From Clostridia bacterium (GTDB taxonomy: Bacteria; Bacillota; Clostridia; Christensenellales; UBA1242), in the NCBI GenBank assembly GCA_045637805.1, contig JAZUAE010000021.1:1638-65637 (forward strand): DNA of 64,000 nucleotides. Direction: 5' to 3'. This document shows positions 3,619 through 48,945 of this stretch, piece after piece (the stretch's first letter is position 1; every line of letters begins with the position of its first letter). The notes beneath the pieces were generated by a model, which had not been told where the DNA came from, did no database searches, and saw nothing but the letters and a program-made list of their open reading frames with translations. The position numbers and the translations under genes are program-made.

Positions 3619-5072
3619 TATACCTCAATATCGTCAAGGGAATCAAATAATGCATCTAATTCCTCTTTCTTATAATCACGCATTTCATAATTAAGTGCGG
3701 TGTTGTTATTTGTACTTGGTGTTGATATATTCATATTCTCAAGACGTTTCTTTATAACGGTAATGTCTGATATTTTTTCAGCATAAAAGTTTGATAATAC
3801 TTTATTCATATATTGAATAGGTTGACTCTTACCTGCACTAGACGCAGCAACAAGCATGATTATTTCATGAGTAAAGTTCCAAGCTGAAGTCCAAGTGTTA
3901 TAAAAATCACGGTCGTATGTATTAACAAGTCGAGTAATTTTACAATTGTCTAAAACTTCACGAATGTTGTTGTCGATATTTGCCAAGCCTTGAATGTATT
4001 CATTAATTGATTGAAGTGATACAAGTCCGAGCTTAAAAAATTTACATATTATAGAGTTTACACCTTCAAGTGTTCTTATGCTTTGTTTAAAGCAATAAGT
4101 TGCAATGGCTTTGAGTGTTTCACTGTCATACCCCTTTTTGAGCCAGTCTGTTATGTATGTATCCACAACGCTTTCAAGATTTTGATAGTAGAGACCGATG
4201 GTCTTTGAAATTTCTCTTGCAAGAGTAAACATAGATTCTTTTGATTCATTGAAACTAGCAATGTCTTCCATGCTAAATAGTTTTTGCTCAGCATATTTTT
4301 TAAGGGATTCATCAAGTTTGGCGAATCCGCCTTTTTTCTTTTGAAGTTTAGCCACTTCTAAAATTGTGCCTTGTGCGAAGCCATAAGTGTTTATCCACTT
4401 AAGATACATGTTTCGTTCTTCAAGATCAGCATCACGTTTTAGTCCAAGAGTTGATAATACTTCTTTAATTTCTTTTCCTGCTCGCTCTTGCTCTAAAAAT
4501 TTAGCCTCTAATGCCGCAGCGCTCTTAATACCTTCTTGTTCGAAGCTTCTTGCCACTGTTAAAATGTAAGGGTAATTAACAGATGTGTTTTTTAGTGTTG
4601 TGCAGTATTTAATTATCATTACAAGAGCCTCAGGCTCAAAGTGATAAGATTCGATTAAGTGATAGTACTCGTTATATTCATTAGGACGAATCATTCTCCC
4701 GCTTAATATTTGTTGAACTTGATTATTGAAATCCTCATACTGGCTTTTAACTCGTAATTTTGCGCTGCCAGAATGTGATTTAATAGGTAAATATTTTATC
4801 TCAATAGGGTCATTTGAAATGATTTGAACAATTCCCATATCTTGCCAGTACGAATAGGCATCGATAATTTCATCTTCAGTCATTTTTAAAATAATAGACA
4901 TACTGCTAAGGGAATTGTCATCAGAATATGGGTTGGTGCATTGACTTAGTCCGTATAAATATACTTTTACATATCCGTCAGGAGCTTTTGGTAAAAACTC
5001 ATTTATAAATGCGTTATCAACAGATGTTGTACCGTCCATAACAAGTGAACTTGAAAACGAACATAATCCCAT
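3618..5072 (-). CDS. DnaD/DnaB-domain primosome protein
   Basis: N-terminal VDNAFINEFLPKAP..YVKVYLYGL and repeated DnaD-like helical units (YI..V...W); clostridial dnaD-dnaC arrangement. Confidence 0.8.
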   Translation of the reverse strand: MGLCSFSSSLVMDGTTSVDNAFINEFLPKAPDGYVKVYLYGLSQCTNPYSDDNSLSSMSIILKMTEDEIIDAYSYWQDMGIVQIISNDPIEIKYLPIKSHSGSAKLRVKSQYEDFNNQVQQILSGRMIRPNEYNEYYHLIESYHFEPEALVMIIKYCTTLKNTSVNYPYILTVARSFEQEGIKSAAALEAKFLEQERAGKEIKEVLSTLGLKRDADLEERNMYLKWINTYGFAQGTILEVAKLQKKKGGFAKLDESLKKYAEQKLFSMEDIASFNESKESMFTLAREISKTIGLYYQNLESVVDTYITDWLKKGYDSETLKAIATYCFKQSIRTLEGVNSIICKFFKLGLVSLQSINEYIQGLANIDNNIREVLDNCKITRLVNTYDRDFYNTWTSAWNFTHEIIMLVAASSAGKSQPIQYMNKVLSNFYAEKISDITVIKKRLENMNISTPSTNNNTALNYEMRDYKKEELDALFDSLDDIEV

Positions 5073-5169
5073 GGCTGCCCCCTTTTACTTGATTTTTTGT
5101 TTCTATGTACTTATAATAACATTAACAAAATTAAAAAACAACATTTTTCAGAAAAAAGGAAAAAGTCAT

Positions 5170-6330
5170 ATGAAAATATTACATACTGCAGACTGGCATT
5201 TAGGAGATAAATTCAACGGCGTAAATAGAATAGATGAACAGAGCAAAATTATAGATGAAATAATAGATATTGCCAACGAAAATTCTGTAGATATGGTTTT
5301 GGTTTGTGGTGATGTTTATAATACTTCAAACCCTAGCAGTGAAGCTGAAGAGTTGTTTTTTTCAAGCATTGAAAGGTTGAGCAATCATGGCGAAAGAATT
5401 GTGTTTGTTATCTCAGGTAATCATGACGATCCAGAAAGACTACAAGCGGCTAGAGGTCTTGCAAATACACACAACATAGTTCTTGCAGGAGAACTTGACT
5501 TAACGGGTAAAAAATATAAAAGCAATTCAAGTGTCAAAATCACCGAGGCGGGATACGGCTATGTAAAAGTGTGCAAGTGTGAAGAAAAAGTAACACTTGC
5601 ATTTTTACCTTACTCCAACAATGCTCGTATGGGGGATAGCAAAACAGAATTAAGTTATGCAGAAAAAGTTGCTATTTGGATTGAGCCTGGAATTAGCAAG
5701 TTTGAAAATGATTCATTTAATATGCTTGCAATGCATTTATTTGTTGCGGGTTCAAGAATAAAGGGTGAAGAGGTGCAGATTGGTGGAGTGATGAGTGTTC
5801 CGCATACAATATGTGAAGACTGCGATTATGTTGCATTAGGGCATATCCATACTAACCAAAAGATAGGACGCAATGTATATTATAGTGGGTCGACGATTAG
5901 AAGACATGTAGTAAATATGGACCCCTCCGTAAATATAATTACTACTAAAAATAACAAACTAGAAGATGTAAAAGTTATTGAATTAAAATCTCCTGTGCAA
6001 TTTGCTAGAATAATTGTTACAAGTTTCAATGAGGCTGAAACGGAACTTTCAAAATACGATAATCAGGACATTATTGAGTTGGTATTTAAAACAAGTGAGC
6101 CGTTGTCTAGTAGTGCGTTAAAAGATCTAAAAAAATCGTATAAATGTATACGAAATATAGCATTTGAGTTGGAATTGAAACAAGCCGATAAAGAATATAA
6201 ACAATTAAGAGAATTATCTGGTGAAGAATTGTTTAGCAGATTTTATATGAAACAAAGAGGCGTGTTGCCTAGAAAGGAACTTGTGGATTTCTTTATTGAA
6301 TGTGGAGGTGATAAAGGTGAAACCGATTAA
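5170..6330 (+). CDS. sbcD: SbcD (Mre11-like) nuclease subunit
   Basis: MKILHTADWHLG, GD, SGNHD, ALGHIH, YYSGS metallophosphoesterase motifs; start moved to ATG 5170 behind AAGGA. Confidence 0.92.
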   Translation: MKILHTADWHLGDKFNGVNRIDEQSKIIDEIIDIANENSVDMVLVCGDVYNTSNPSSEAEELFFSSIERLSNHGERIVFVISGNHDDPERLQAARGLANTHNIVLAGELDLTGKKYKSNSSVKITEAGYGYVKVCKCEEKVTLAFLPYSNNARMGDSKTELSYAEKVAIWIEPGISKFENDSFNMLAMHLFVAGSRIKGEEVQIGGVMSVPHTICEDCDYVALGHIHTNQKIGRNVYYSGSTIRRHVVNMDPSVNIITTKNNKLEDVKVIELKSPVQFARIIVTSFNEAETELSKYDNQDIIELVFKTSEPLSSSALKDLKKSYKCIRNIAFELELKQADKEYKQLRELSGEELFSRFYMKQRGVLPRKELVDFFIECGGDKGETD

Positions 6331-9300
6331 ATTAGAAATTAGTGGACTCCAAAGTTTCATTGAGAAACAAACAATAGATTTTTCCGCTGTTGAAAGTGGA
6401 ATTTTTGGTATTTTTGGAAAAACTGGAAGTGGCAAGTCAACAATTCTTGATGGTATCACTCTTGCTCTTTATGGATACGTTAATAGAATTTCAAAAAATG
6501 CAGAATTTATAAACGCTAAGTGTAACAGGGCAGAGGTTTGTTTGGAGTTTGAGTGTGATGACCGCTTTTATGAAGTTGTAAGAGAGTTTAAACTTAAGAA
6601 AAACAATAATGGAGTTGATTCTTCTGCTGAGTTAAGAATTAAAGATGGAGAAGAATGGAAGGTGATAGCTGAGGGTCCATTCCAAGTAGATAAAAAAGTC
6701 GAAGAAATAGTTGGTTTATCTCCAACGGAGTTTTGTCAGGTAATAGCTTTGCCGCAGGGCAAGTTTGCTGAATTTTTGCAAGCAAAACCGGCAGAAAGAA
6801 CCTCACTCATATCTAACATTTTTGGCATAACAGAATACGCAGAAAAGTTATACAATAATGCAAAAGACAATTTAAACAAATCAGAAAAAGAACTCAGTAT
6901 TTTAGAGGCTGAAAAAGATGGAGTTGGCAATGTTTCAATCGTTGATATTGATGAAAAACAATCACTTTTTGAAGCTCAAGAAAATGAATTAAAAGAGTTG
7001 AATTTTAAAGTTGAAAACCTGAGTGCCGAGTATTTAAATTTGGTTGAGAATTCTTCATTAAAAAAAGATCAGTTAAGATTGAAATCAGAACTTGAAGAAT
7101 TGTATAAAAAAAGTGGAGATATTAAGCAAGACAAAAATAGACTTGCTCAGTATGAGAATGCTAAAAAATTAGAAATCTATGTTTTAAACAAAGAAAGATT
7201 AGAAAATCAACTTAATGAATTAAACGACGAAGTAACGGCCTTACGCGAACAAAAGCAAGAACAGGAAATGTTCTTTCGTGACTATGAGGAACAATATAAA
7301 AAGTTTGAAGCAATTCAAAAAAGCGCATTAATAGAACTTGATGCTAAAAAGGTTAAAATTTTAGAACTTGAAGAAGATAGGGTATTAACTCAAAAACTTA
7401 ATCAAGAAAAAGAAAGATTACTAGGTGAACTTGAAAATAAAAATAATCAATATGAAGATATAATTTTACAAATACAAACAATAGATAAATCTTTAGACAA
7501 TATTGAAAAAAATATATTGCAGCTTCGTCAAGAAAAAAATGAATATGAAATCAGCAAAAACAAATTAGGTATAGTTGCAGAAAACAAGTCAATCGAGTCT
7601 GAAATTATGCTTATTGAAGATTTTGAAAAACAAATCGAAAGAGTAATTGAAAATTACAAACAAGAATTAGAAGATTATAAAAAAGATTATACGGCAATAT
7701 ATAAAGCTGAACGAGATAACGCGCAAAAAATCAATGAGATTAGTGTGTCCCTTGATAAGGTTTTAGGTAAGTCTGGAAAGCCGATTGTTGAAAGATATAA
7801 AGATGTGCTAGGCAAATTGTCAAACATGGACAATGTTCAGGATAAATATGATTTTCTAGCTCTTACAAATGAAAAAACCAAATCAGAAACAATTAATTTC
7901 ATTGAAAAGGTTAAAGAACTTGAAAGCCAAAGTGAAAAAATTAAGTCTTCATTGCAGGAAAAAATACAATTTACAAACAAACTTGAAAGTGAATTAAAAA
8001 ATGCACAAATAAAAAGAGAAGAGTTTTTAGGTGAAAATTTGCTTTCGCTTCTTGTGCAAAATGTAGACATAGGTGATTCTTGTCCCGTTTGTAAAGGGAA
8101 AGTTGCAACAAAAAATACTATACCAAGTAGCGACATATCGGGGCTAGATAGAGAGATCGCAAATACACGTAGCACCTTATCTCTTGCTAGAAAAGACAAA
8201 GAAAAAACCGAGTGCAGCCTTGCAACTGTTAATGCACAAATTCAGTTCTTAAAATCTCAAATAGAAATCAATAAAGCAAAATATGAAAATGTGAAGAGTG
8301 CACAAGAAAAGCTTTATATGTGTTTTGTTGATAAAAATGATAAGCAAGCTGACAACTTTAAAAGTATGCACGAGGCAACTTTTGCGGCATCTATAGCTCT
8401 TGAAAAATTATTGATTGAAAAAGATAAAATGGTAAACTCATCTTTGTCTATTATTGAAGAAAGAGTAGAATGTGGGGCAAAAATTCAATCAATAAATGAA
8501 TACATCGAGAAGTTGACAGATGTTTTATATTATTTAGAAAAGCTGAGGGCAGAAAGGGAGTTTTCTATATATAATGTCCAGAACGAATCAGGTTTAGATT
8601 ATAAAAAGGCAAGTAAAAAATTAAATGAGATATGTGATAAAATAGAGGATTTATCTGAATCTTTAGTAAATGCGGAAAAAGAAAAGGAAAAACAAGCAAA
8701 TAGCAAGCTCGAATTAACTAAGGCTATGGGGTTAAATCTTGCAGAAAAGGGAGCTATTGAAATAAAGATTGAAAATATTTCAGAGTCAATTAATAGCAAA
8801 GATGAAAAGTTTGCTAAACTCGGAATTGAAATAGAAAATGATGAAAATCCATTAGATCAAATAAATAAAAAACAGATAGAGCTTCAAAACAAGGCCGAAG
8901 AATTTCAATCAACATATAATGCCAAGATTGAACAAAAACAAAAAAGCGAAAAAGATTATAATTTAAAAATGGCAATTTTGCATGATAAAAATGAGGAGCT
9001 TCGAGAAGTTGAGGCTAAGCTTTCAAATTTATCTAGAACTCTTGGTTTTGAAAACGTTGAGGAAGTTAAGCGAAATATTGTAGATGATTCTATGATGAAT
9101 GAATTAAAAAATTATATTGAAGAATTTGAGAAGAGAGTAAGTATTGTAAATGTACAACTCGCGAATATAAAAGAGAAGGTGGGCACTGCTGAAATCGATG
9201 TTGATAAGGTTGATAAAATTAAGGTAGAACTTGATCAATTAAAAATTAAACTTAGCGAAAAACAGGTTTATTTTGGCGTATTACAAGCACAGCTTAGTGA

Positions 9301-25059: not shown

Positions 25060-25136
25060 GGGGGTATAGCTCAGCTGGCTAGAGCACCTGCCTTGCAAGC
25101 AGGGGGTCACCGGTTCGAATCCGGTTATCTCCACCA
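25060..25136 (+). tRNA. tRNA-Ala (anticodon TGC)
   Basis: Cloverleaf GGGGGTA/TATCTCC with G3:U70, anticodon arm CCTGC-CTTGCAA-GCAGG, TTCGAAT loop, encoded CCA. Confidence 0.97.
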
Positions 25137-25223: not shown

Positions 25224-25300
25224 AGGACTGTAGCTCAGTTGGTTAGAGCACCACCCTGATAAGGTGGGGGTCGGTGGTCCGAGTCCACTCAGTCCTACCA
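25224..25300 (+). tRNA. tRNA-Ile (anticodon GAT)
   Basis: AGGACTG/CAGTCCT acceptor stem, CCACC-CTGATAA-GGTGG anticodon arm, T-loop TCCGAGT, encoded CCA. Confidence 0.95.
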
Positions 25301-25335
25301 TAATAAAAATAACGAACCCGTGCGGTTCGTTTTTT
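25291..25335 (+). repeat. R0: tRNA-Ile 3' end plus hairpin type A (tRNA terminator)
   Basis: AGTCCTACCATAATAAAAATAACGAACCCGTGCGGTTCGTTTTTT. Confidence 0.9.
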
Positions 25336-25414
25336 AATGATGATATTTATGGCAAGTATTAGTAAAATAAAAAAGTTACCAATATTATACATAAAAAAAG
25401 AGGTCGTTTGACCT

Positions 25415-26098
25415 CTATATTTTTTCTAAATTTAATACTGGTTTTGCTGAAATATCTCCGTATGAGTTTTCCTTTTTATAACTCCCCGAATCTTTGTCAT
25501 AGGAATATACTGCTGGAAATCTATAAAATCCAGAAACTTGTTCATCGAATTCAAAGAAAAGGGTATTAATGTCAAGTGAAGGTGTAATTAACATTTCGCC
25601 CATTTGAAGTGCGGTTTTGTATTGTTTTGCATATGCATATGCAGATATTAAATCTTGAGAACTCCAAGTGTTTGAGTGTTCAATTTTTTGACGTATTGGA
25701 TGTGTATGTCCTAAAAATATAATAGGTTTTCCGAAACTTTTAAATTTTAAAGCAATAGTCGCAAATTCGTCAAGTTTATTAAGTGTTTCATTTTTATCTC
25801 TAAAATCAATTCCCTCAGTTGGAGAATTTGTTTGTGTAAATGGAGAGCATGTTTCAATACATATTTGACCATCTTCTCTTTCATAGCCTATTAAAATAAA
25901 ACCAATTTCTACCTGTCTCGCAGTGTTATTATTGTCAACTACAGCTTGTTTTAACGAGTTAAAATTATTTATTGCTCTTTTGCCAATCACAACATTATAT
26001 TTTGAATTTAAACAAGGCAAATTTTTTGCATTTGAAATATATGAGTCGGTCGAGAGGTTTTGTTTTTGCATTATTTCAATTATATTCATAAATTTCAT
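25415..26098 (-). CDS. JAB/MPN-like (JAMM motif) protein, cassette 1
   Basis: E(IGFILIG)...GHTHP...WSSQD resembles E-HxH-SxxD; own TTGCAA-17-TATAAT promoter. Confidence 0.55.
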   Translation of the reverse strand: MKFMNIIEIMQKQNLSTDSYISNAKNLPCLNSKYNVVIGKRAINNFNSLKQAVVDNNNTARQVEIGFILIGYEREDGQICIETCSPFTQTNSPTEGIDFRDKNETLNKLDEFATIALKFKSFGKPIIFLGHTHPIRQKIEHSNTWSSQDLISAYAYAKQYKTALQMGEMLITPSLDINTLFFEFDEQVSGFYRFPAVYSYDKDSGSYKKENSYGDISAKPVLNLEKI

Positions 26099-26153
26099 CT
26101 CCGAATTAAATTATATATTATAAAATCATAATTTGCAACAGATAAAATTAATA

Positions 26154-26223
26154 ATTTCGCATTAGAGATAATACGTTCTACCATAATAATTGTAAAACGA
26201 ATCACGAAAGTGGTTCGTTTTTT
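26154..26223 (+). repeat. R1: arm X + core + hairpin type B
   Basis: CGCATTAGAGATAATACGTTCTACCATAATAATTGTAAAACGAATCACGAAAGTGGTTCGTTTTTT; 32 bp identical to R6. Confidence 0.9.
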
Positions 26224-26225
26224 AA

Positions 26226-26347
26226 TTATTATCATAGTCCTGTGTGTTAGTACCACCAACCCCCAACCGTGCAAGGGGCATAATTTGTTTACAAATTTGC
26301 CCCTGCACCGAAGGTTGCCAAACTTGTTTTTGCATACGGTAGGGTGA
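26226..26347. repeat. Degenerate inverted tRNA-Ile 3'-half copy plus GC-rich hairpin element (copy 1)
   Basis: TTATTATCATAGTCCTGTGTG..ACCACCAACCCCCA resembles the reverse complement of tRNA-Ile; GTGCAAGGGGCA...TGCCCCTGCAC stem. Confidence 0.7.
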
Positions 26348-26396
26348 TAAAACGAAACACCGTTTTAGACTTTTTTTATGAAAAGTTATAAAAACA

Positions 26397-26462
26397 AGAT
26401 AAAACTTGTTGACTTTTCAACAAGTTTTATCTATACTATATCTTGTTGAAAAATCAACAAGA
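26397..26462 (+). promoter_or_regulatory. Promoter with two palindromic operators (CTTGTTGA-N4-TCAACAAG), probably MarR autoregulation
   Basis: 16-bp-arm inverted repeat 26397-26432 over -35 TTGACT; second copy 26441-26462 downstream of -10 TATACT (17-bp spacing). Confidence 0.75.
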
Positions 26463-26470
26463 GGTGGCTT

Positions 26471-26938
26471 ATGGATGAAAGATTTAGAACTTTTACGGTT
26501 CTTATAACAAAATTATATCGATCAATTAGAAAAATAAAAAGTGCAGAAACTGAAGAATATGGTTTGACAAATTCACATGTATCATGTCTGTATTATATTT
26601 ACAAAGAAGAAGCTTTAACTCTTACAGAATTAGTAGATATTTGTTTGGAAGATAAGGCGGTGTTATCAAAAGCTATTATGTTTTTAGAGTCAAATAATTT
26701 AGTTGTTTGTGATTCAAATCAAAAAAAGAGATATAATAATTATTTTAGACTTACGGAAAAAGGCTTAGATATAGCTAAAGGGATTGCTTTTAAGATAGAT
26801 AAAATTTTAGACTATGCGAGTTCTGAAATTGATAATTCGGATAGGGAAGTTTTGTATAAATCTTTGTCATCAATTAGTGATAAATTAGATAAATTTTGTG
26901 AAAATATGGAGGAAAATAAAAAATGGCTGTACAAATAG
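26471..26938 (+). CDS. MarR family regulator, cassette 2
   Basis: YGLT..H..CLYYI, LTLTELVDIC.EDKAVLSKAI..LE, RLTEKG. Confidence 0.85.
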   Translation: MDERFRTFTVLITKLYRSIRKIKSAETEEYGLTNSHVSCLYYIYKEEALTLTELVDICLEDKAVLSKAIMFLESNNLVVCDSNQKKRYNNYFRLTEKGLDIAKGIAFKIDKILDYASSEIDNSDREVLYKSLSSISDKLDKFCENMEENKKWLYK

Positions 26939-27771
26939 TTGTAGATTCGTCAAGTGATATTAATAGTGAGGAGGCTAAAAAATTAGGTGTTACTATGTTG
27001 CCAATATCTATTACTTTTGGCGAAGAGGAGTTTATGGATGGAGTTGATATAAACCATGAACAATTTTATGATAAGTTGTCTCAGTGTGATGAGTTGCCTA
27101 AAACGAGTATGATTAATGCATATAGATTTGAGGAAACTTTTGATAAAATTGTAAGCAATGAAGATGACATTGTTGCTATAATTTTATCATCAGAGTTGTC
27201 GGGAACATGTAATGCAGCAAAAAATGCAGCTGAAAAATATAAAGACAGAGTTTTTGTTGTTGATTCATTAAATGCTAGTGCAGGAATAAAAATTTTAGTT
27301 GAATATGCACTTCAGTTAAAACAAGAAGGAAAAAGTGCAAAAGAAATTTATGATATTTTAGAAGAAAAGAAGAAAAATATTCAAGTTCTTGCAATGGTAG
27401 ACACTTTGAAATATTTAAAAAAAGGTGGGCGCGTGTCTCCAATGTTGGCTTTTGCTGGAGAACTTATGGGAATAAAACCTATGGCTGCAGTTGTTGATGG
27501 AAAAGTAGAAGTTATAGGTAAAGTTATTGGATTAAAAAAGGCAATAAAGTATATTAATAATGAGATAGAAAAAGTGGGTGGTATTGACTTTAATATGCCA
27601 TTTTATACTCTTTATTCTGGTAATGATCAGACAAAAATTAATAATTATATTATTAATAATGAATGTTTATGGGAATGTGGTGTGGAGAATGTTAGAAAAA
27701 ATTGCATTGGTGCAACAATAGGAACACATGTTGGTCATGGTGCAATTGGTATTGCATTCTTTTCAAAATAG
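26923..27771 (+). CDS. DegV family fatty-acid-binding protein, cassette 2
   Basis: VDSSSD, LPKTS, LSSELSGT, VDS, LKYLKKGGR, IGTHVG.GAIG. Confidence 0.92.
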   Translation: MAVQIVVDSSSDINSEEAKKLGVTMLPISITFGEEEFMDGVDINHEQFYDKLSQCDELPKTSMINAYRFEETFDKIVSNEDDIVAIILSSELSGTCNAAKNAAEKYKDRVFVVDSLNASAGIKILVEYALQLKQEGKSAKEIYDILEEKKKNIQVLAMVDTLKYLKKGGRVSPMLAFAGELMGIKPMAAVVDGKVEVIGKVIGLKKAIKYINNEIEKVGGIDFNMPFYTLYSGNDQTKINNYIINNECLWECGVENVRKNCIGATIGTHVGHGAIGIAFFSK

Positions 27772-27811
27772 ATTAATATATTTTACAACAGTAATATAAT
27801 AGTTATTGTTA

Positions 27812-27877
27812 ATTCCGCATTAGAATGATTGCGTTCTACCATAATAAAAATAACGAACCCGTGCGGTTCGTTTTTTT
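27812..27877 (+). repeat. R2: arm Y + core + hairpin type A
   Basis: 27836-27876 is a 41-bp exact copy of 25295-25335. Confidence 0.92.
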
Positions 27878-28048
27878 ATTATTCTAGTACTGATTGAACA
27901 CGCACACCGACCCCCACACATGTTGCAGGGAAGCATAATGCGAAGCATTTGCCCCTGCAACATTGACAACCGAAAGGTTGGCAAATAAGGTGGGGTCGTA
28001 TTGAGGTGCACCGAAGGTTGCGGGTCTGTTTTGACATAAGGTGGGTGG
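27873..28048. repeat. Degenerate inverted tRNA-Ile 3'-half copy plus multi-hairpin element (copy 2)
   Basis: TTTTTATTATTCTAGTACTGATTGAACACGCACACCGACCCCCAC aligns to the reverse complement of the tRNA-Ile 3' half; ATGTTGCAGGG...CCCTGCAACAT and CAACC-GAAA-GGTTG stems; forward ATAAGGTGGGGTCG. Confidence 0.8.
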
Positions 28049-28112
28049 TTGATTCTTCATTGCATTTTACTTGTTTTATTACATTAAAAAAGCAAGTTGT
28101 TTTACGACTTGC

Positions 28113-28379
28113 CTACTTACCATCCCAATCTTCTGGCCTACGCCAATGGCCATATTTTTCAAAAAACAAATCTTGTTTTTTCATTATTTCATCAACTTCT
28201 TCGTTGGTGTATTTTTTTTGTTGTGGGTTATAACCAACTGCTTCCATATTCCACTCATCTAATCGCCACCTTATATCCAAAGTAGGTGCTTTTAATTTCT
28301 TATAGTCTGGATAATTAGTTTTTAATTTTTCAAAAGTGTATGGCAATAAATTTTTCCACCAAGGGTCATCATAATACAT
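28113..28379 (-). CDS. Hypothetical protein (88 aa), cassette 3
   Basis: GGAGA RBS and TTGACA-18-TAATAT promoter upstream; no family recognised. Confidence 0.6.
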   Translation of the reverse strand: MYYDDPWWKNLLPYTFEKLKTNYPDYKKLKAPTLDIRWRLDEWNMEAVGYNPQQKKYTNEEVDEIMKKQDLFFEKYGHWRRPEDWDGK

Positions 28380-28496
28380 ATTATTTTCTCCATTTAATAC
28401 ATATTACATCGCCCTCTTCAAATTTGTCAAATTCTTTAAATTTGAAATTTCTTCCTATTAAAAATTGAAATTCAACATCTTTATAGTTGGAGCAAT

Positions 28497-28535
28497 ATAA
28501 TTGTAAAACGAATTACAAAACAGATTCGTTTTTTT
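28497..28535 (+). repeat. R3: degenerate type-B hairpin repeat lacking the core
   Basis: ATAATTGTAAAACGAAT identical to R1, then ...TTCGTTTTTTT. Confidence 0.7.
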
Positions 28536-29124
28536 ACTTACATAAATCATAATATCCATCAACGAGGGATAAGTTTTCATCAGCCATCAATATAGAAAGT
28601 CCTTTCTTTTTACGATATTTAGTCCATCCGTAATGGGTTCTATAAATTAGTTTATATAAGTCTACATATTTATGTATTTCCATTTCTTGAACTTCTTTAT
28701 TGTTTAAAATCATAAAGAATTTATAACTATAAATTTCATCGATTGATTCATAAGATAGTATTTTTCTATCAATAAGATCGCATAATGTACGAACCCATGT
28801 TAAATAATTTAAAACATCTGCAGGCATTGTTTTTAAACTGGTGTATTTTTCTTTAGAATATTTTTTATCTAATTCATTTAAAACTTTAGTATTACTTTCT
28901 TGTTCGTAAAATGATTGATAGAATTCAACAATAAAAGATGCTTCATTGATTTGTTTGTCTTTTTTAAATTGAATCCATAATGCAACAGCACCAATGATTG
29001 CTGTAACTGTAGTTACAATTGTAGAAATGGTGTTTGAGTATTCTGTTAAAAAAGAACCGATAATAACACCTAAAACTATTAGTGCTGTACTTATAATCAA
29101 AATTATGTTAGAATTTTTTCTCAT
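28534..29124 (-). CDS. Hypothetical membrane protein (two N-terminal TM helices), cassette 4
   Basis: Hydrophobic N-terminus followed by a helical soluble domain; AGGAG RBS. Confidence 0.7.
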   Translation of the reverse strand: MRKNSNIILIISTALIVLGVIIGSFLTEYSNTISTIVTTVTAIIGAVALWIQFKKDKQINEASFIVEFYQSFYEQESNTKVLNELDKKYSKEKYTSLKTMPADVLNYLTWVRTLCDLIDRKILSYESIDEIYSYKFFMILNNKEVQEMEIHKYVDLYKLIYRTHYGWTKYRKKKGLSILMADENLSLVDGYYDLCK

Positions 29125-29216
29125 GTGTTTTCTCCTTTAAATGAAGTATATGGTTGATGCATATAAAAAGTCAAACAAATAGTTAGAGTTTGTAAAAATA
29201 TTATAAATATTAAAAG

Positions 29217-29282
29217 TCTTGCATTAGAGTGATTGCGTTCTACCATAAAAAAGATAATGAACCCGTGTGGTTCGTTTTTTTT
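29217..29282 (+). repeat. R4: arm Y + core + hairpin type A
   Basis: GCATTAGAGTGATTGCGTTCTACCATAAAAAAGATAATGAACCCGTGTGGTTCGTTTTTT. Confidence 0.88.
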
Positions 29283-29384
29283 ATTTTAATTTATTTCTTA
29301 ATTAAACATTTTTAACTATGTGTGTTGATTGTTTTTGATTGATTGCGTTTTATAATGATGGTATCTTATAAAGGAGGAAAATAT

Positions 29385-29741
29385 ATGAACACAGATAAGA
29401 TTTATGCAGAGCAAATTGCAAGCGAATATGCAGAAAAGGGGACTTCAAAGGTTAAAGCATTAAAGAGGCTTGATGCAAAAGCTAAAAACCCAGCTCATAT
29501 TTTTGCTTATACTTTTGGTATTATTTGTAGTTTAATGCTTGGTACAGGTATGAGCTTAGCAATGGGCGTTATTGGCGGAGGATCTATCCTTATGATGGCA
29601 ATTGGTATTATTGTTGGTTGCATTGGTATTTTTGGTGTAAGTATTAATTATTATTTATATAGAAAAATACTAGAAAATGGCAAAAAGAAATATGCAAATG
29701 ATATAATAGAACTTGCAAAACAAATTACATATGAGGAATAG
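29385..29741 (+). CDS. Small two-TM membrane protein, cassette 5
   Basis: LK.LD.KAK.PA.IFAY.FGI...L.LG.GMSLAM pattern; AGGAGG RBS. Confidence 0.75.
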   Translation: MNTDKIYAEQIASEYAEKGTSKVKALKRLDAKAKNPAHIFAYTFGIICSLMLGTGMSLAMGVIGGGSILMMAIGIIVGCIGIFGVSINYYLYRKILENGKKKYANDIIELAKQITYEE

Positions 29742-29743
29742 TT

Positions 29744-30307
29744 ATGAATAAGGCGGAAAGTAAATATTTTAACACTGCAAGGTTAATGAATACAGCATTA
29801 ATATATCTATTAGAAAAGAGAGAATTGGATAAAATAACGGTTAAAGAAATTTGTGAAAAAGCGGGAGTGAACAGGTCTACATTTTATTTACATTATGAAT
29901 CCATAGCAGATTTATTGGTTGAAACGGTGGAAAATTTGGGTAAAGATTTTAAAAATCAATTTTTGCAGACTTCAATATTAAAAAGTAATGATAAACCACA
30001 AATGTTGTTAACTGAGGAATATTTAATTCCATATTTGAACTTTGTAAAAGACAATAGGCGCATTTTAAAAACGATTCATTCTAGACCAGAAATTTTTGAT
30101 GTTGAACAAACTTACGAAAAAATGTGTTTTCAAATATTTTATCCCGCAATAAATATGTTTAATATTGACGATTCCGAAAAACCTTATATCCTTGAGTATT
30201 ATACAAAAGGTATTGTCGCAATTATTAATAAATGGATTTCAAACAACTGTGAAGATCCTATCGAGCTGATTATTAAAATAATTTATGATTGTGTTAAAAT
30301 TCCGTAA
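29744..30307 (+). CDS. TetR/AcrR family regulator, cassette 5
   Basis: ITVKEICEKAGVNRSTFYLHY HTH. Confidence 0.9.
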   Translation: MNKAESKYFNTARLMNTALIYLLEKRELDKITVKEICEKAGVNRSTFYLHYESIADLLVETVENLGKDFKNQFLQTSILKSNDKPQMLLTEEYLIPYLNFVKDNRRILKTIHSRPEIFDVEQTYEKMCFQIFYPAINMFNIDDSEKPYILEYYTKGIVAIINKWISNNCEDPIELIIKIIYDCVKIP

Positions 30308-30316
30308 TATGGTGAC

Positions 30317-30366
30317 CTCAGTCCTAACATAAATTTATAAACGAATCACGAAAGTGGTTCGTTTTT
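30317..30366 (+). repeat. R5: tRNA-type arm + core variant + hairpin type B
   Basis: CTCAGTCCTAACATAA is 15/16 identical to the tRNA-Ile 3' end (25288-25303), then AAACGAATCACGAAAGTGGTTCGTTTTT. Confidence 0.85.
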
Positions 30367-30417
30367 CTTTGTAGAAATTATGTTATTGTGATACAATTTA
30401 TTTAGGAGATAACATTT

Positions 30418-30852
30418 ATGGACAAGTTAGTTGATGTTAAAAATTATATAATTGCAAGAGAGCCTGTTTTTCATCATAGAGAATTTACAAATTCGAGAGA
30501 AGATGTGGAAAGAGAGACAACTGATGATTATTTTGAAATTAGTGCAAGTGGGTGTGATTACTCTCGTGAGTTTGTTTTAGATTATCTTGAAAAAAGATAC
30601 AAAGAAGAACCTGAAGATGATATGATAAAAGATGGCTGGAAGGTTAAAAACTTTAAAATTAGAAAGCTTGCTGACGAATTATACTTAGTAAATTACACTC
30701 TTCATGGACAAGGTAGAGTAACCAAGCGTGGTGAAATCTGGAAGGGAAACCTTACTGATGGAATCAAAATTATGTATCATCAAGGAACGGTTGTTGTTCC
30801 TGAAAGAATTAGCGAACACAAAAATTTGTTAAAAACATTAAATAAAAAATAA
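30418..30852 (+). CDS. NTF2-like (DUF4440-type) protein, cassette 6
   Basis: REPVFH..E, DYFEISASG..YSRE, YLVNYTL.QGRVT.R..IW, YHQGT. Confidence 0.7.
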   Translation: MDKLVDVKNYIIAREPVFHHREFTNSREDVERETTDDYFEISASGCDYSREFVLDYLEKRYKEEPEDDMIKDGWKVKNFKIRKLADELYLVNYTLHGQGRVTKRGEIWKGNLTDGIKIMYHQGTVVVPERISEHKNLLKTLNKK

Positions 30853-30854
30853 TC

Positions 30855-30918
30855 TTTCCGCATTAGAGATAATACGTTCTACCATAATAAAAAAACGAAC
30901 CCGTGTGGTTCGTTTTTT
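30855..30918 (+). repeat. R6: arm X + core + hairpin type A
   Basis: 30859-30890 identical to 26158-26189, then AACGAACCCGTGTGGTTCGTTTTTT. Confidence 0.9.
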
Positions 30919-30980
30919 ATTTGACATAATTTGCATGATTATAATAAAATATTTATAGCGTACAAAAAGGAGGGGTATAT

Positions 30981-31547
30981 ATGAAAAAGTTTTTTGCTAA
31001 AAAATGGACACTAATAGGTTTTGTTATTGCATCTGCAATATTTCTTGGTGGACTGCTTGCAATGCTTTTAAGTCCAGTCTTCTATGTTGGAGCTTATAGT
31101 GGTGGTGAGGGTGATGATAATTATAGTTATAAATACTATATTCATTTCAAGTCATGTAATAAGTATGAAGTAACACGAGAAGCTAAATTAATTTCAAATG
31201 GAACAACCACAACAACAGTGACTGAATATTGGTACTATAGACAAGGTGATGTTGTCATTTCTATAGACAAAACAGAAGATATGACAAAAGAACAGTACGA
31301 TAAAACTGTAAAAGAAATTAAAGATTTAAGTGAAGAAGAATTTGAGGTTTTAGTTAAAACACGCGGATCAAAAATTAATTTGCGCTACATGGAAATAAAG
31401 ACACTTACAAGTAGTGTAAAATATAGTAACAAGTCTAGTATAACATTCCTTGTAATTGATTCAATTCTATTAGGTCTTGCACTTACTGGTACAGGATTGT
31501 CAATATTTTATTATGTTAAAGCAAAAAAGAAAAAATCTAAAAACTAA
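30981..31547 (+). CDS. Hypothetical membrane protein (N- and C-terminal TM helices), cassette 7
   Basis: Two hydrophobic segments flanking a soluble domain; AGGAGG RBS. Confidence 0.7.
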   Translation: MKKFFAKKWTLIGFVIASAIFLGGLLAMLLSPVFYVGAYSGGEGDDNYSYKYYIHFKSCNKYEVTREAKLISNGTTTTTVTEYWYYRQGDVVISIDKTEDMTKEQYDKTVKEIKDLSEEEFEVLVKTRGSKINLRYMEIKTLTSSVKYSNKSSITFLVIDSILLGLALTGTGLSIFYYVKAKKKKSKN

Positions 31548-31559
31548 ATAGTAATAGAT

Positions 31560-31589
31560 AAAATCGAACCCGTGTGGTTCGTTTTTTTT
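31560..31589 (+). repeat. R7: type-A hairpin without core (array end; also a terminator between convergent genes)
   Basis: CGAACCCGTGTGGTTCGTTTTTTTT. Confidence 0.8.
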
Positions 31590-45078: not shown

Positions 45079-48000
45079 ATGTCAGAAACTCTTAAAAAAG
45101 AAAATTCAAACGAGAAAAAACCTTTAAATCTTGGTGGTCCAGCTCAATTCAATACTCTTCGTGCTGTTTGTACAGCACTCCGTGTTGCTGCAAGAAAAAT
45201 AGAAAACTCTAATATTTCAGAATGTTGGAAATATATTCAAAACAATAAAACAACAGATAGTGAATTAACTGCTGTTTCTAGTTACTTGCCGGATAGAGAG
45301 GCTGATGCTATCGCTCTTCTCAGACTTTCAAAAAGTCTTTGTGATATAGACGAGGGCACTCGTAGTCATATAATTCCAACTATATCAAGTATTGATCATG
45401 CAAAAGGCGAGTATGATAGAGCTTTAATTGATGCTACACCTGTTCTTGAAGAACAATTTCAAAATGCTGAAAAAAATTATAAGGCGGCAAGAAAGTTGAG
45501 AGCAAAAGCAAAGAGGGGAGTTTTTTTCAATAGGCTCGGAATTCTTGGAACTATAGGGTTAAGCATTGCGGGCATTGCTTTGGGTGGAAGCCTTATATCT
45601 GGTGCTGTTTCTGCATTGATGGCTGGCGCTTCTCTTACTTCTGGTGCATTCCTTGTTGCTTTAGGCCTTGGAATTTTTGCTGGTAAAGGAGCTATTGCTG
45701 GAATCAAAGGTTTATTTGGCTTATTTGGAAGAAACATTGGAAATCACAAGAAATTTCTAAATGATCAAAAAGCCAATTTTAATGAGTTAACGAATGCACT
45801 AAATAGAGCAAGAGAAAACTACAATGAGAACGTTAATGCAATAAGCATGAATAATGCTTACGGCTATGAGCCTGTAGATCAGGTTGCTTATGCTAAAGGT
45901 TTTGGTTATAACGAGTTTATTGTTGATGGCGACTTTAATAGATCTAGAAGGAATACTCAAGAATCAGAATTTATTGTTCCTGTTCAAGAATCTAAGAATG
46001 TTAGTTATGCTCAAAATGTGCCTGAAGAACAAGTAGAATATGTTCCACAAAACGCAGTGGATAATCAACAAAATTCAGCTGAGCAACAAAGCAATGGTGA
46101 AAATGAGGCTGAAAGATCGTTTAATAACAATAATGTTGAAGAACCTGTTGCTGATAAAAATGAAAACGCGCTACAAACTTACTGGAATGATTATAGAGAT
46201 TTTAAAGGAAAATATTTAGAAGAGAATCCTAACGCAAAAGCTGGCGATGTTAAAAGTGCTTTCGATGCTAGCAGAAAAGTAAACAAAGACAATCCTTGGG
46301 AAGCTTTCAAAAATTCAGCTGATGTTAATACTGATGAAGATGTGTTTGTTGCCGAATCAGATTATGATTTACAAGTGAACCATGCACAACTTATGTTTGA
46401 AGTTGCACAATACAACAAGGCAATAGAAGATTATAATAGTGGAAAACTATCTTATGAGGATTTAAAAACTATTCCGATAGGTGATTCTACATTTGAGAGA
46501 GTTATATCTGAACCTTATGATGATGGAAATTCTCTTGGTTATAGAATTGCATATCATAATAAGATGACTAAAAATGATAAAAAATATGGAATAGATGTGA
46601 AAACCATTGGCCCTAAACTTGCTGATAGAAGATCGTCTCTTCAAGATATGATTGATAAAGCAAATCAAGAAATACAATTGCTTCCAAAGAAGAATAATCC
46701 TACAGCACAACAAAATAGTGAAATTGGACCTAAAAAAGGTAATGGAATGGTAAATAACGTTTCTAAAATGGAAGCAAAATTTGCCACAGGCGACCCACAA
46801 ATCGATAAATTCTTTGCGGGCAAATCATACATTGATTGTCAACGCATGATTGATACTCTTTTTGCAAGAGATTCTGCACAAAGAGCTAGAGCACAAGAAT
46901 ATTTTGGAGATTTGGCTAAGAGTAAAGTATTTAGAGATAAAATCGCTCAAAAATGGGCAGACTTTAAACAGGAAAATAATATAGTTATTATTAATGGCAA
47001 AGGTGACGAAGATTTTGTTCTTGAATTTAAGCCATCAGCTGTTTGCGATGCTACAAGGAGTGAATTAAAACAAGCTATCGAAGATGCTGCACAACTTGAA
47101 GAAGTGGATTTACCAAAAGCAAAGATGGATAAGGCAATAAGTGCTGTATCAACTGCAGCAAAAGCCGTGTTAGAAAAAGAGAAAGAAGACAAAATTGTTG
47201 AAGCTCCAAGTAATGAACTTGTTGAACAAGAAAAGAAGGGATTAATTGAAGAAGACCTTACTAAACAATTCCAAAAAATGCTAAAAGCGCAAAATGGTGC
47301 TAAAGCGATACCTTCTAACAAAATTGAAAAAGGTGATTACTGGGCAGGTTATGCTGAGTTTAAAGCAAAATATTTAGAAGAAAATCCAGATAAGAAAGCT
47401 GGCGATGCACAAGCTGCTTATCGTGAAATGAAAAAAGAAGAGAAGTCTAAGGAAGTAGAAAAAGCTGGTTCTAATACTGCAGCAAACACTCAGTTAAAGA
47501 ATCCAGAATATGCTGAATTTAAAGCAAAATACTTGGCTGAAAATCCAGATAAGAAAGCTGGCGATGCGTGGAAAGCTTATCGCGATATGAGAAAACAAGC
47601 AAAAGCAGCTGAGGATGAGAGAACTGAAGTTGTATTAAATATACCTCCAAAAGTGGAAAAAGCTTCTAACATAGAATATGCAAATCCAGGACCTCAAGGT
47701 GTCGTTCCTGCGAGCGCGAGAAGAGAAAAAGCAGTTGGGGTTAGACAAACCGATACACGAGTAATACTTGCAGAACCAATTGTTGGTAATGTGGCTACTG
47801 AACAGAATTCTAGTGATAATCAGATAGATAAAGATATAATTGCGGCATTCAAAAAAGATCGTGAACCAATTGTGGCGGATTATATGAATAAAAATCCAGA
47901 CACCTCTGTTGTTAAATATAATCCTGATTTGTATAATTACAATGAGGAAGGAATTAAGGTTAAACCTGAAAAGGTGGATGCGGCACTTAAAAAATCTCAA

Positions 48001-48945
48001 TCAAAGCAAGAGTTTGCTAAATTTGAAAAAGAATATTTGACAAAAAATCCAGGCACAAGTGCATTAAAGGTATTGAAAGCTTATTCTGAAAGCCAAAAAG
48101 GAATTTCAGAAAAGGAATCTAAAGTAGAAAAAGCTGGTTCTAATACTGCAGCAAATACTCAATTAAAGAATCCAGAATATGCTAAGTTTAAAGAAAAATA
48201 TTTAGAAAAGAATCCAAAAGCAAATGCCGGTGATGCTTTAAAAGCTTATCGTGATATTAAAAAACAAGAGAAGTCTCAAAAAGAAGTAAAAAAAGCTGGT
48301 TCTAACACTGCAGCAAATACTCAATTAAAGAATTCAGAATATGCTAAGTTTAAAGAAAAATATTTAGCAAATAACCCAGGCAAGACAGCTGGAGAAGCAC
48401 GTGCTGCTTATTTTGAAAGTAAAAAGGCTAAGGTTGATAATAAACAAGTTAATGTTGATAATGTTAAAGGATCTATCGGCGTAGAAGTTGCTGGTGGCCA
48501 AGGAAAAGCAGGTAAAGCTGCTGCTCCACAAGTTAGAAAACTAACACCTGAAGAAATTGCTAACGCTCAAGCAAAGATAAATGAATTTGGCGAGGTCGTT
48601 AGAGGCGGTGAAAATCAGGCTAAAGCTGCTGCTCCACAAGTTAGAAGCCTAACACCTGAAGAAATTGATAAAGCTAAAGCTGATGCTTCAGAATATACTA
48701 ACAGCAGCGTTAATATGAACAACCTTAAAGATGTTACAAGACTAGGCAATCCTGTTAAAATAGATAATGGTGGTAAAATTCAATCTAATAACATGACAAA
48801 AAACGAAAAATATTCATTTAAACAATTTGCCGATGAAATTAGTGTTGATTTTGCTGACCCTAAAGCAGTAAATGATGCATTAAAGAGATTCAATGCTAAA
48901 AACAAAAAAGGTAATGAAAAGGAAGGGGAAGAACCTCAAATGTAA
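45079..48945 (+). CDS. Large hypothetical protein with a Gly/Ala-rich hydrophobic hairpin and internal repeats
   Basis: 1288-aa ORF, AGGAG RBS, own promoter and terminator; six or seven YAxFKxKYLxxNPxxxAGDAxxAY repeats. Confidence 0.8.
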   Translation: MSETLKKENSNEKKPLNLGGPAQFNTLRAVCTALRVAARKIENSNISECWKYIQNNKTTDSELTAVSSYLPDREADAIALLRLSKSLCDIDEGTRSHIIPTISSIDHAKGEYDRALIDATPVLEEQFQNAEKNYKAARKLRAKAKRGVFFNRLGILGTIGLSIAGIALGGSLISGAVSALMAGASLTSGAFLVALGLGIFAGKGAIAGIKGLFGLFGRNIGNHKKFLNDQKANFNELTNALNRARENYNENVNAISMNNAYGYEPVDQVAYAKGFGYNEFIVDGDFNRSRRNTQESEFIVPVQESKNVSYAQNVPEEQVEYVPQNAVDNQQNSAEQQSNGENEAERSFNNNNVEEPVADKNENALQTYWNDYRDFKGKYLEENPNAKAGDVKSAFDASRKVNKDNPWEAFKNSADVNTDEDVFVAESDYDLQVNHAQLMFEVAQYNKAIEDYNSGKLSYEDLKTIPIGDSTFERVISEPYDDGNSLGYRIAYHNKMTKNDKKYGIDVKTIGPKLADRRSSLQDMIDKANQEIQLLPKKNNPTAQQNSEIGPKKGNGMVNNVSKMEAKFATGDPQIDKFFAGKSYIDCQRMIDTLFARDSAQRARAQEYFGDLAKSKVFRDKIAQKWADFKQENNIVIINGKGDEDFVLEFKPSAVCDATRSELKQAIEDAAQLEEVDLPKAKMDKAISAVSTAAKAVLEKEKEDKIVEAPSNELVEQEKKGLIEEDLTKQFQKMLKAQNGAKAIPSNKIEKGDYWAGYAEFKAKYLEENPDKKAGDAQAAYREMKKEEKSKEVEKAGSNTAANTQLKNPEYAEFKAKYLAENPDKKAGDAWKAYRDMRKQAKAAEDERTEVVLNIPPKVEKASNIEYANPGPQGVVPASARREKAVGVRQTDTRVILAEPIVGNVATEQNSSDNQIDKDIIAAFKKDREPIVADYMNKNPDTSVVKYNPDLYNYNEEGIKVKPEKVDAALKKSQSKQEFAKFEKEYLTKNPGTSALKVLKAYSESQKGISEKESKVEKAGSNTAANTQLKNPEYAKFKEKYLEKNPKANAGDALKAYRDIKKQEKSQKEVKKAGSNTAANTQLKNSEYAKFKEKYLANNPGKTAGEARAAYFESKKAKVDNKQVNVDNVKGSIGVEVAGGQGKAGKAAAPQVRKLTPEEIANAQAKINEFGEVVRGGENQAKAAAPQVRSLTPEEIDKAKADASEYTNSSVNMNNLKDVTRLGNPVKIDNGGKIQSNNMTKNEKYSFKQFADEISVDFADPKAVNDALKRFNAKNKKGNEKEGEEPQM
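47455..48345 (+). repeat. Three approx. 60-bp intragenic direct repeats (47455, 48124, 48286) encoding V(E/K)KAGSNTAANTQLKN(P/S)EYA
   Basis: Near-identical DNA copies read directly from the sequence. Confidence 0.85.

Follow-up and report, generated by a model that had tools for sequence, protein, structure and literature searches.

A palindromic pseudo-tRNA module at junctions of a tRNA-Ile gene-insertion hot spot in small-genome gut Clostridia

Behind the tRNA-Ile gene of a Clostridia bacterium, gene segments are stacked between repeats of the tRNA 3′ end, and two of the five junctions of this array carry a non-coding module in which a degenerate inverted copy of the tRNA is joined to forward copies by hairpins. 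Here, we analysed the downstream one of these modules, E2 (27873 to about 28065), in a stretch of 64,000 nucleotides (assembly GCA_045637805.1, contig JAZUAE010000021.1, positions 1,638 to 65,637; hereafter the window, from whose first base all coordinates are counted). The host genome is 96% complete, with 29 contigs that add up to 1.10 Mb. At tRNA landing sites of mobile DNA, the classic expectation is a direct repeat of the tRNA 3′ part; beyond it, a whole bacterial family also carries inverted tRNA copies, which covarying hairpins connect to forward copies and which are kept across genera and border stacked gene segments. In small-genome gut Clostridia, these modules mark junctions of a hot spot of gene insertion; they are undescribed as far as our full-text literature search reaches; supplements and subscription journals lay outside that search, so an earlier description is possible. 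Our tentative reading, to which we assign a probability of roughly 0.4, is that E2 is a ‘pseudo-tRNA’ module, palindromic at the level of DNA, and belongs to the attachment-site region, or landing pad, of this tRNA-Ile integration hot spot, where it may take part in recombination.

E2 is assembled from pieces of a single template, the tRNA-Ile(GAT) gene upstream. The gene and the parts of the module are as follows.

25224..25300, + strand: tRNA-Ile(GAT), source and anchor of all copies (ARAGORN; Rfam tRNA, 68.2 bits)
27873..27919, + strand: E2 part 1, degenerate inverted copy of trailer, acceptor, T arm, variable loop and anticodon-stem 3′ strand
27920..27963, + strand: E2 part 2, 11-bp hairpin ATGTTGCAGGG / CCCCTGCAACAT (folds, alignments)
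27967..27980, + strand: E2 part 3, hairpin CAACC-GAAA-GGTTG (sequence, fold)
27985..27998, + strand: E2 part 4, forward tRNA-Ile positions 36-50, ATAAGGTGGGGTCG
28036..28065, + strand: E2 part 5, second forward copy (positions 36-45), then a degenerate T-arm-like stretch; end of the module

Aligned to the reverse complement of tRNA-Ile with its trailer (25224-25340), the interval 27868-28060 reached a local score of 55 over 52 columns with one gap, compared to a mean of 15.0 (standard deviation 2.2, maximum 24) in 500 shuffles. The alignment spans the terminator 3′ arm, the trailer, the acceptor and the T arm down to the 3′ strand of the anticodon stem at 84% identity and includes two exact blocks, 27873-27882 (inverted trailer) and 27905-27917 (inverted tRNA positions 41-53). 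Control flanks behind three other junctions of the array (J0, J3 and J4, listed below) matched the tRNA locus only in A/T-rich 7-9-mers. In part 2, the inner stem pairs an antisense copy of the anticodon-stem 5′ strand (CAGGG) with a sense copy (CCCTG), and alignments show the hairpin to be homologous to the GGGGCATAAT..TTTGCCCC hairpin of the sister module E1 and of the modules in two relatives, L029 and G170. Part 3 has a diverged second copy, GCACCGAAGGTTGC, at 28008-28021, a motif also found in E1, in L029 and in a further relative, G120. The second forward fragment, ATAAGGTGGG, is exact at 28036-28045. In terms of tRNA positions, E2 runs inverted (trailer, then 53-41), forward (36-50) and forward again (36-45). 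An earlier description made from the letters of this stretch (hereafter the sequence-only reading) had claimed the inverted tRNA 3′ half and trailer at 27873, both stems and the forward fragments at 27985 and 28036; we found all of them, and the module reaches about 28065, past the boundary at 28048 drawn there.

The array to which E2 belongs contains the following features.

25060-25136, + strand: tRNA-Ala
25301..25336, + strand: trailer of tRNA-Ile and intrinsic terminator, junction J0 (repeat D1; terminator scan)
26144..26225, + strand: junction J1, GCATTAGA..CGTTCTACCATAATAA (degenerate T-arm-like piece, short acceptor, CCA) and a variant terminator (repeats D2, D4 and D6; inverted repeat I2 with 28-nt arms, 82% complementary; terminator scan)
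26226..26350, + strand: E1, with an inverted degenerate tRNA-Ile 3′ half, the hairpin GGGGCATAATTTG..CAAATTTGCCCC, GCACCGAAGGTTGC and forward ATACGGTAGGGTG
27793..27877, + strand: junction J2, a J1-type repeat with a terminator matching that of tRNA-Ile itself (repeats D1-D4, inverted repeat I21)
29197..29286, + strand: junction J3, repeat and terminator, inverted module absent behind it
30856..30918, + strand: junction J4, repeat and terminator, inverted module absent behind it
31552..31588, + strand: last related terminator copy, where the array probably ends; CTACCA piece lacking
25415..31547, both strands: nine open reading frames (ORFs) in five inter-junction segments (ORF list, Pfam)

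At four sites 3′ of tRNA-Ile, namely J1, J2, J3 and J4, the repeat GCATTAGAnnnnnTnCGTTCTACCATAA is followed by an intrinsic terminator; by eye, the repeat resembles a degenerate T arm with the loop TTAGAGT or TTAGAAT, joined by a short acceptor strand and CCA. The segments are delimited, as in an accretion island, by direct repeats of the tRNA 3′ end (D1-D4), and the terminator scan found 16 terminator-like sites in the region, compared to 2.3 expected. The content of the island differs between relatives and its tRNA-proximal side is syntenic: in genome G001 of the same genus, four proteins encoded upstream of the tRNAs (rubrerythrin, SDR, MetRS and MarR) are kept in order, and 17 downstream window proteins queried against the 15 kb downstream in G001 had no counterparts there, with one weak TetR-family match (37% over 64 aa). 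The segments carry one to three ORFs on both strands: one of 227 aa (−); one of 155 aa and a DegV protein of 282 aa (+); two of 88 and 196 aa (−); one of 132 aa, a TetR protein of 187 aa and one of 144 aa (+); and one of 188 aa (+). DegV and the TetR regulator are the only two of the nine to which Pfam gives a name. Positions 25296-25335 and 27837-27876 are identical over 40 nt (J0 versus J2), so that the 2.5 kb between them look like the latest insertion, before which E2 would have directly followed the tRNA-Ile terminator. In the extended terminator hairpins of J1 and J2 the trailer sequences differ yet stay complementary, and both hairpins retain a 2-nt mismatch opposite the CC of CCA; by reading, their bases have CTA / CC-mismatch / ATAATAA..TTATTAT in common, and the apex differs. 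A terminator, AAACGAATCACGAAAGTGGTTCGTTT, is also present inside segment 4 (30339-30364), identical to the copy at 26195-26220.

E1 stands behind J1, one junction upstream of E2, and is about 70% identical to the tRNA, with an inverted-alignment score of 34 (shuffles 14.6 ± 2.1). The two modules have the blocks CATAAT, ATTTGCCCCTGCA, GCACCGAAGGTTGC and forward ATA[AC]GGT[AG]GGGT in common; relative to the tRNA, E1 shows, by reading, a compensated change of AAGG to ACGG with CCTT to CCGT. Known copies of this type are E1, E2 and those of L029, G120 and G170. L029, a metagenome-assembled Clostridia genome from goat caecum, has its module behind tRNA-Ala/tRNA-Ile with one short unit intervening and was the single real match of the E1/E2 hairpin pattern among genome contigs, next to one chance match in an Opitutales coding region. 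With E1 as query, 150 other genomes of the family yielded two real matches, G120 and G170, and a chance 21-mer in coding DNA. Both modules lie directly 3′ of the tRNA-Ile terminator. In G120, trailer and terminator form a 43-nt direct repeat around the module (84% identical, period 191), and the forward piece of the module is colinear with the real tRNA 3′ half, the T-arm and acceptor part having decayed to A/T. G170 is a hybrid, in which an E1-like 5′ half is joined to the GCCGAGC..CGAACGCC 3′ half of a commoner subtype described below; its core block CCGTGCAAGGGGCATAATTTG is identical to that of E1. The tRNA-Ala/tRNA-Ile spacers are unrelated between genomes whose core blocks match, and copies in different genomes have derived features in common that are absent from the tRNA (GTGCAAGGGG, GCACCGAAGGTTGC and a bulged T). 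A DNA search with E2 in 60 relatives matched only terminator-like or tRNA-like bits, the exact junction-repeat pattern had no matches in species-representative genomes, phage records gave none, and matches in plasmid records were limited to parts of the TetR gene region.

The commoner subtype stands behind tRNA-Ile in many relatives, often in tandem. It begins with a terminator, CCCCACCTT (antisense of the anticodon-stem 3′ side) and two hairpins, continues with ATCAGGGTG (antisense of the 5′ side), a short sense CCCTG and a scaffold that often reads GCCGAGC..CGAACGCC, and ends with a hairpin, a forward copy from ATAAGG to CCA and another terminator. When one genome per species was scanned for its pattern, 23 loci came up. 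Two of these, in Thermosyntropha and Limnohabitans, are chance matches and were dropped; the 21 real ones all lie behind tRNA-Ile or a partial tRNA-Ile copy, in records of uncultured Clostridia, Firmicutes, Eubacteriales, Christensenella, Catabacter or uncultured bacterium. A covariance model of the 5′ half matches 22 of 150 family genomes and 18 of 58 genera, and the two species-level genomes L067 and L074 carry an identical 119-nt core between different flanks. We take all these modules to form one family spreading or persisting in uncultured Clostridia of about 1 Mb, always behind tRNA-Ile or displaced tRNA-Ile 3′ pieces, the link of E1 and E2 to the commoner subtype being their common architecture and the hybrid G170. 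Several units of relatives (L056 1750-1830, L040, L073, L075 and L086) also contain a structured insertion of 50-90 nt in the T loop of the forward pseudo-tRNA, exactly between GGTTCG and CCACTC, of which there are several conserved types. Many unit terminators (L069, L073, L079) have ATGAGTG/CACTCAT stems made of inverted and forward copies of the tRNA T-stem/acceptor, so that terminator formation could face competition from the tRNA 3′ strand.

For the two hairpins of the commoner subtype, covariation was measured in 24 sequences and compared to 500 shuffles. We found that 97.1% of the cells are paired, versus 74.5% in shuffles, and that 12 of 13 pairs show two-sided changes, in 70 cells. 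None of the shuffles attained the observed paired percentage, the double-change cell count or the covariation score, and two reached 12 pairs with two-sided changes. When the partners were slid by 1-3 columns, pairing fell to 31-53%, and RNAalifold on a longer alignment found two-sided changes at 13 of 18 pairs. The closing helix is not free to covary, since the tRNA is the source of both its strands. There is a single G-U pair in about 297 paired cells, and one-sided changes are almost absent. Comparable elements in relatives (L029, G120, G170 and the 22 genomes with the commoner subtype) and covariation in the stems, whose absence would have counted against the sequence-only reading, were both found, the latter strong and almost purely Watson-Crick. 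The near-absence of G-U pairs fits DNA-level palindromes better than RNA.

As single-stranded DNA (ssDNA), 27818-28068 folds at −50.8 kcal/mol (z = −6.4; none of 200 shuffles equals it), and as RNA, 27873-28068 folds at −64.1 kcal/mol (z = −2.8). In both, the inverted CGACCCC pairs with the forward GGGGTCG, part 4 pairing with 27908-27917 and closing a three-way junction. To reconstruct the earlier state, the tRNA with trailer and terminator (25224-25336) was joined by script to 27878-27925. The tRNA 3′ half and the inverted copy then form a hairpin of about 50 positions (−36.0 as DNA, z −5.6; −63.2 as RNA, z −6.4), and the present junction folds into the extended terminator only (−18.9, z −3.4). 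The long hairpin that had been predicted for a cassette abutting the tRNA therefore forms in this reconstruction, and the same arrangement occurs naturally in G120 and G170. In these two relatives, the acceptor and T-arm portions of the inverted copy are decaying towards A/T, so long pairing with the tRNA is not a conserved feature.

Could the module be an RNA after all? It might be a structured RNA from the 3′ external spacer, transcribed by read-through of the tRNA-operon terminator and acting as an antisense, sponge or decoy for tRNA-Ile or a tRNA-binding factor. The module points the same way as the tRNA operon, whose promoter fits at 11 of 12 positions, a + strand terminator closes every unit, and the compact multi-helix fold offers GAAA or GAA loops and conserved unpaired blocks. 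However, the module starts right after a terminator, and between this terminator and E2 there is no promoter-like site (such sites are no commoner in the region than in shuffles); the RNA fold reaches a z of only −2.8, the one G-U pair of the commoner subtype speaks against RNA, and no Rfam family is matched. At gathering thresholds, only tRNAs pass in the whole window, and E-value scans of the array, of the loci of eight relatives and of seven other loci in the own genome likewise returned only tRNAs above threshold. Matches to HPnc0260 scored 37.5-48.5 bits (gathering 59), nearly all of them on the opposite strand of a tRNA or a partial tRNA copy. Position behind a terminator with no promoter, the near-absence of G-U pairs and the lack of an Rfam match make an RNA gene the less likely interpretation, and we consider the read-through version improbable. 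Hammerhead, twister and other ribozymes were dropped for want of an Rfam match and a T-box because no synthetase gene follows; group II intron fragments and retron non-coding RNA were dropped as well, no reverse-transcriptase gene having been seen nearby in the Pfam scan, the only search made for it.

How might such a module have come about? In the model of tandem inversion duplication, three copies are formed, the middle one inverted, with joints at short palindromes. Our module has this layout: it reads as a forward-inverted-forward triplication of the 3′ two-thirds of tRNA-Ile and its terminator, of which E2 would comprise the inverted middle, the junction hairpin and the start of the third copy. 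The inverted copy runs back to about position 27 and is followed by the CAGGG/CCCTG antisense-sense hairpin and then by the forward copy, and the joints lie at the terminator and at the CAGGG/CCCTG stem. We infer from this layout that the module may have originated as tandem inversion duplications do, by fold-back or template switching at two sites, the terminator hairpin and the region of the anticodon stem. One study reports that template switching both creates hairpins and maintains their perfect pairing (PMC8794818), and the stems of our modules are likewise kept perfect without G-T intermediates; they would be held in Watson-Crick state by template-switch correction, by protein binding or by both. 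In contrast to the known tandem inversion duplications, which are recent, unstable and either from the laboratory or lineage-specific, one and the same module, derived features included, occurs here in different genera and carries extra conserved hairpins.

The same origin also leads to an explanation that requires no present role at all, namely that E2 is a passive relic, a tandem inversion duplication or decayed att-site debris whose stems are kept by template-switch correction. Its layout, the A/T drift seen in the inverted acceptor and T arm of G170 and G120, identities to the tRNA of 84% and about 70%, a patchy distribution, the scarcity of G-U pairs and the reported ability of template switching to make and maintain hairpins (PMC8794818) would all be expected of such debris. 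What argues for more than debris is that identical core blocks occur across genera while the neighbouring intergenic DNA is unrelated, that copies in different genomes have GTGCAAGGGG, GCACCGAAGGTTGC and the bulged T in common, and that genomes of about 1 Mb are expected to shed junk. Together with the 119-nt identity between L067 and L074, the identical cores and common derived features suggest that a pure relic is less likely, and we regard this explanation as unlikely.

Coming back to the module as part of a landing pad, integrase-borne and recombinase-less segments accumulate at this site, a hot spot of the lineage, and the modules would be acted on in trans by recombinases encoded elsewhere. 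Several observations in relatives and in the own genome are consistent with this. Many relatives harbour conventional integrative elements with arm-type repeats directly behind tRNA-Ile. In G062 (L098, G062:C1:279600-292524, positions 490-8480), an 8-kb element lies between two near-identical copies of a CTACCA-terminator unit of about 200 nt and encodes a large serine recombinase, a G2P-like rolling-circle Rep, a tyrosine integrase and a PD-(D/E)XK nuclease; over some 200 aligned nt, the flanking copies are told apart by the tips of both hairpins and, close to the 3′ end, by three single-base gaps. In G132, one unit and a displaced tRNA 3′ half, which a second unit follows, enclose an integrase element. 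Integrases thus occupy the same site in G062 and G132, and none was found in the window, where a Pfam scan of 29 ORFs between 19372 and 48945 detected no integrase domain. On other contigs, the own genome encodes five tyrosine recombinases, four serine recombinases and, at three places, G2P-like rolling-circle Rep genes (PF23343). It has no IS110 match (PF01548) at E ≤ 1, a search that was positive in control genomes, and no Y1 HUH transposase (PF01797) above cut-off.

A number of findings weigh against E2 as a landing-pad module. Pfam detects a recombinase domain in none of the nine ORFs of the array, and no Rep either; recombinases are likewise missing among 89 ORFs of at least 130 aa at 19 loci of the commoner subtype and among the ten ORFs of L029. 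With a recombinase missing beside every copy examined, action in trans is an assumption. We found no recombination event, excision junction, circle or presence/absence polymorphism of a single segment, and the layout is all that speaks for a template-switch origin. The purine-rich GNRA-like loops, the conserved bulged T and the closing helix would be expected of a structured RNA as well. The best match of the covariance model in the window is the antisense of the tRNA itself (24.8 bits), nothing significant was found on the + strand at E1 or E2, and the family scan gave no match in the own genome, so that by model score E1 and E2 are not members of the commoner subtype. Finally, the E1/E2 hairpin pattern had a single match in metagenome contigs, by chance, and the subtype is rare.

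A more specific mechanism would treat the module as a folded ssDNA attachment site in the manner of attC or of the attP(+) of CTXphi. Inverted and forward copies would pair and mimic a tRNA-arm duplex, and a tyrosine recombinase would join this mimic with the tRNA gene by exchange of one strand, using strands from rolling-circle replication or transfer. Likenesses are not lacking. Imperfect palindromes border recombinase-less segments, the inverted and forward target-like pieces are predicted to pair and close the junction, pairing is almost exclusively Watson-Crick, tandem arrays occur, and the bases of the J1/J2 hairpins (CTA / CC-mismatch / ATAATAA..TTATTAT) are conserved with a variable apex. 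Rolling-circle Rep genes (PF23343) exist at three places in the own genome, and one lies between units in the 8-kb element of G062; single-strand integration of the CTXphi type is an established precedent (PMC3442271, PMC4246890). The differences are equally concrete. The hairpin bases of J1 and J2, CTACCATAATAA / TTATTATnnTAG, lack the GTTRRRY pair of the R and L boxes, so the attC consensus boxes are absent; IntI, attI and Pc of an integron are lacking, and the segments carry several ORFs on both strands, unlike integron cassettes. As to CTXphi, our site is a tRNA-Ile gene flank rather than a dif/Xer target, and the array contains neither a Rep nor a recombinase gene. Extra hairpins interrupt the central region, and the G062 element lies beside a unit and not inside one. 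We judge this mechanism to be quite unlikely.

Similar pieces are found behind other tRNAs of the own genome. Among 36 tRNAs with 150 nt of downstream sequence, two have a clear inverted copy of their own 3′ part behind the terminator; tRNA-Glu(CTC) is followed by a unit with a forward copy.

G000:C28:71000-71543: inverted T-arm/acceptor copy of tRNA-Cys, directly behind its terminator
G000:C12:133400-133849: inverted T-arm/acceptor copy of tRNA-Arg(CCT), directly behind its terminator
G000:C14:96512-96710: unit of about 200 nt behind tRNA-Glu(CTC), ending in a perfect 19-nt forward copy and a terminator

The tRNA-Cys copy matches its own tRNA at 14 of 14 nt (score 30; other tRNAs score 18 at most) and the tRNA-Arg(CCT) copy at 15 of 17 nt (score 24 versus at most 16); the structured regions of about 250 nt that follow them have no Rfam match. 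The forward copy behind tRNA-Glu(CTC) repeats the 3′ end of this tRNA 194 nt downstream, and the scaffold GCCGAGC..GCGAA.GCCACGAGC..GCGAGT is, by reading, found both in this unit and in the Ile unit of G170. A tRNA-Ser-like gene of G021 is followed by a unit containing inverted and forward pieces from the T arm of that tRNA. The scaffolds behind tRNA-Cys and tRNA-Arg are unlike that of E2: their hairpin, GGGGTCCCCGAAAAG..CTTTATGGGGAGAGGA, is present at about six loci of the own genome, four of them beside tRNAs, and a similar hairpin lies within an Ile unit of G132. Judged by these sequences, inverted and forward pieces follow the adjacent tRNA, and parts of the scaffold recur. The sequence-only reading had suggested testing whether the inverted segment tracks the neighbouring tRNA on a constant scaffold; tracking is seen for Cys, Arg and the Ser-like gene, on scaffolds that for Cys and Arg differ from that of E2. 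Two copies of a conserved non-coding element of about 170-290 nt, at G000:C18:97810-98110 and 101900-102080, lie 4 kb apart; both start with GGGGTCCCCGAAAAG..CTTTATGGGGAGAGGA, end with ..TGGTGGTACCA[TG]GCCCCTTAACAC and may bound an island, and the first is very like the element behind tRNA-Cys.

Does tracking of this kind imply programming? The sequence-only reading had also considered a guide- or bridge-like RNA, i.e. a programmable RNA of the bridge RNA or seekRNA kind that directs a recombinase to the tRNA gene. As in the bridge or seek RNAs of IS110/IS1111, a non-coding structured region with target-matching segments stands at the end of a mobile segment; segments complementary and identical to the target are both present, the inverted pieces behind tRNA-Cys, tRNA-Arg and the tRNA-Ser-like gene match those tRNAs, and the GCCGAGC..GCGAA.GCC..GCGAGT scaffold is common to the Ile unit of G170 and the own tRNA-Glu unit. 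However, any tRNA-integrating element must carry target sequence, so that tracking of the tRNA is by itself no proof of programmability. An IS110-type (DEDD recombinase) gene was not found in the 96%-complete genome, a recombinase adjoins none of the copies and is missing from all nine array ORFs, and the target match covers 45-52 nt, unlike the short guides held in two loops. Both tRNA-matching pieces have the plain relation of an inverted copy to one target strand and pair with each other in the folds. With neither an Rfam match nor an IS110 recombinase nor a promoter of its own, and with one G-U pair in about 297, a guide RNA is not supported, and we hold it to be very improbable. A broader idea combines folding and tracking at the level of DNA: the modules could be attachment sites in which folded DNA imitates one arm of the target tRNA, with a hairpin scaffold between inverted and forward copies (Ile, Glu, Cys, Arg, Ser), and be used by recombinases encoded elsewhere for an integron-like, tRNA-anchored capture of genes. 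This is speculative, and we rate it as decidedly improbable.

The array has known counterparts. Comparable tRNA-anchored tandem accretion is found in the cis-mobilizable elements (CIMEs) of streptococci. In the tycheposons of Prochlorococcus, as set out in the preprint, segments stack by a tRNA with partial-tRNA repeats between them, newer segments push older ones outward, and many carry only cargo (10.1101/2020.12.28.424599). As in both of these systems, segments in the window pile up beside a tRNA gene with repeats of the tRNA 3′ part in between. The window differs in that its repeats take in no more of the tRNA than the last 6-9 nt, together with trailer and terminator, in that two junctions carry an inverted tRNA copy with hairpins, and in that the array is without an integrase. 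In this preprint, ‘hairpin’ and ‘palindrom-’ do not occur, and ‘inverted repeat’ appears once, in the reference list. If the modules do take part in recombination, they would reveal how streamlined-looking genomes of about 1 Mb capture recombinase-less segments at tRNAs; if they are products of template switching, they would represent a natural, long-lived tandem inversion duplication that builds structured DNA beside highly transcribed genes. In either case, they are unannotated repeats that can confuse the prediction of tRNAs, islands and small RNAs in metagenome-assembled genomes from the gut.

Two ORFs of the window deserve a brief mention. The one of 1288 aa (45079-48945, + strand) matches no Pfam family at E ≤ 0.001. 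The 227-aa ORF of the first segment (25415-26098, − strand) also lacks a Pfam family and has a homologue (41% identity) in one of 150 family genomes, there without tRNA context; by eye, it displays an HxH...S..D pattern, which we take to resemble that of JAMM/MPN metalloproteases.

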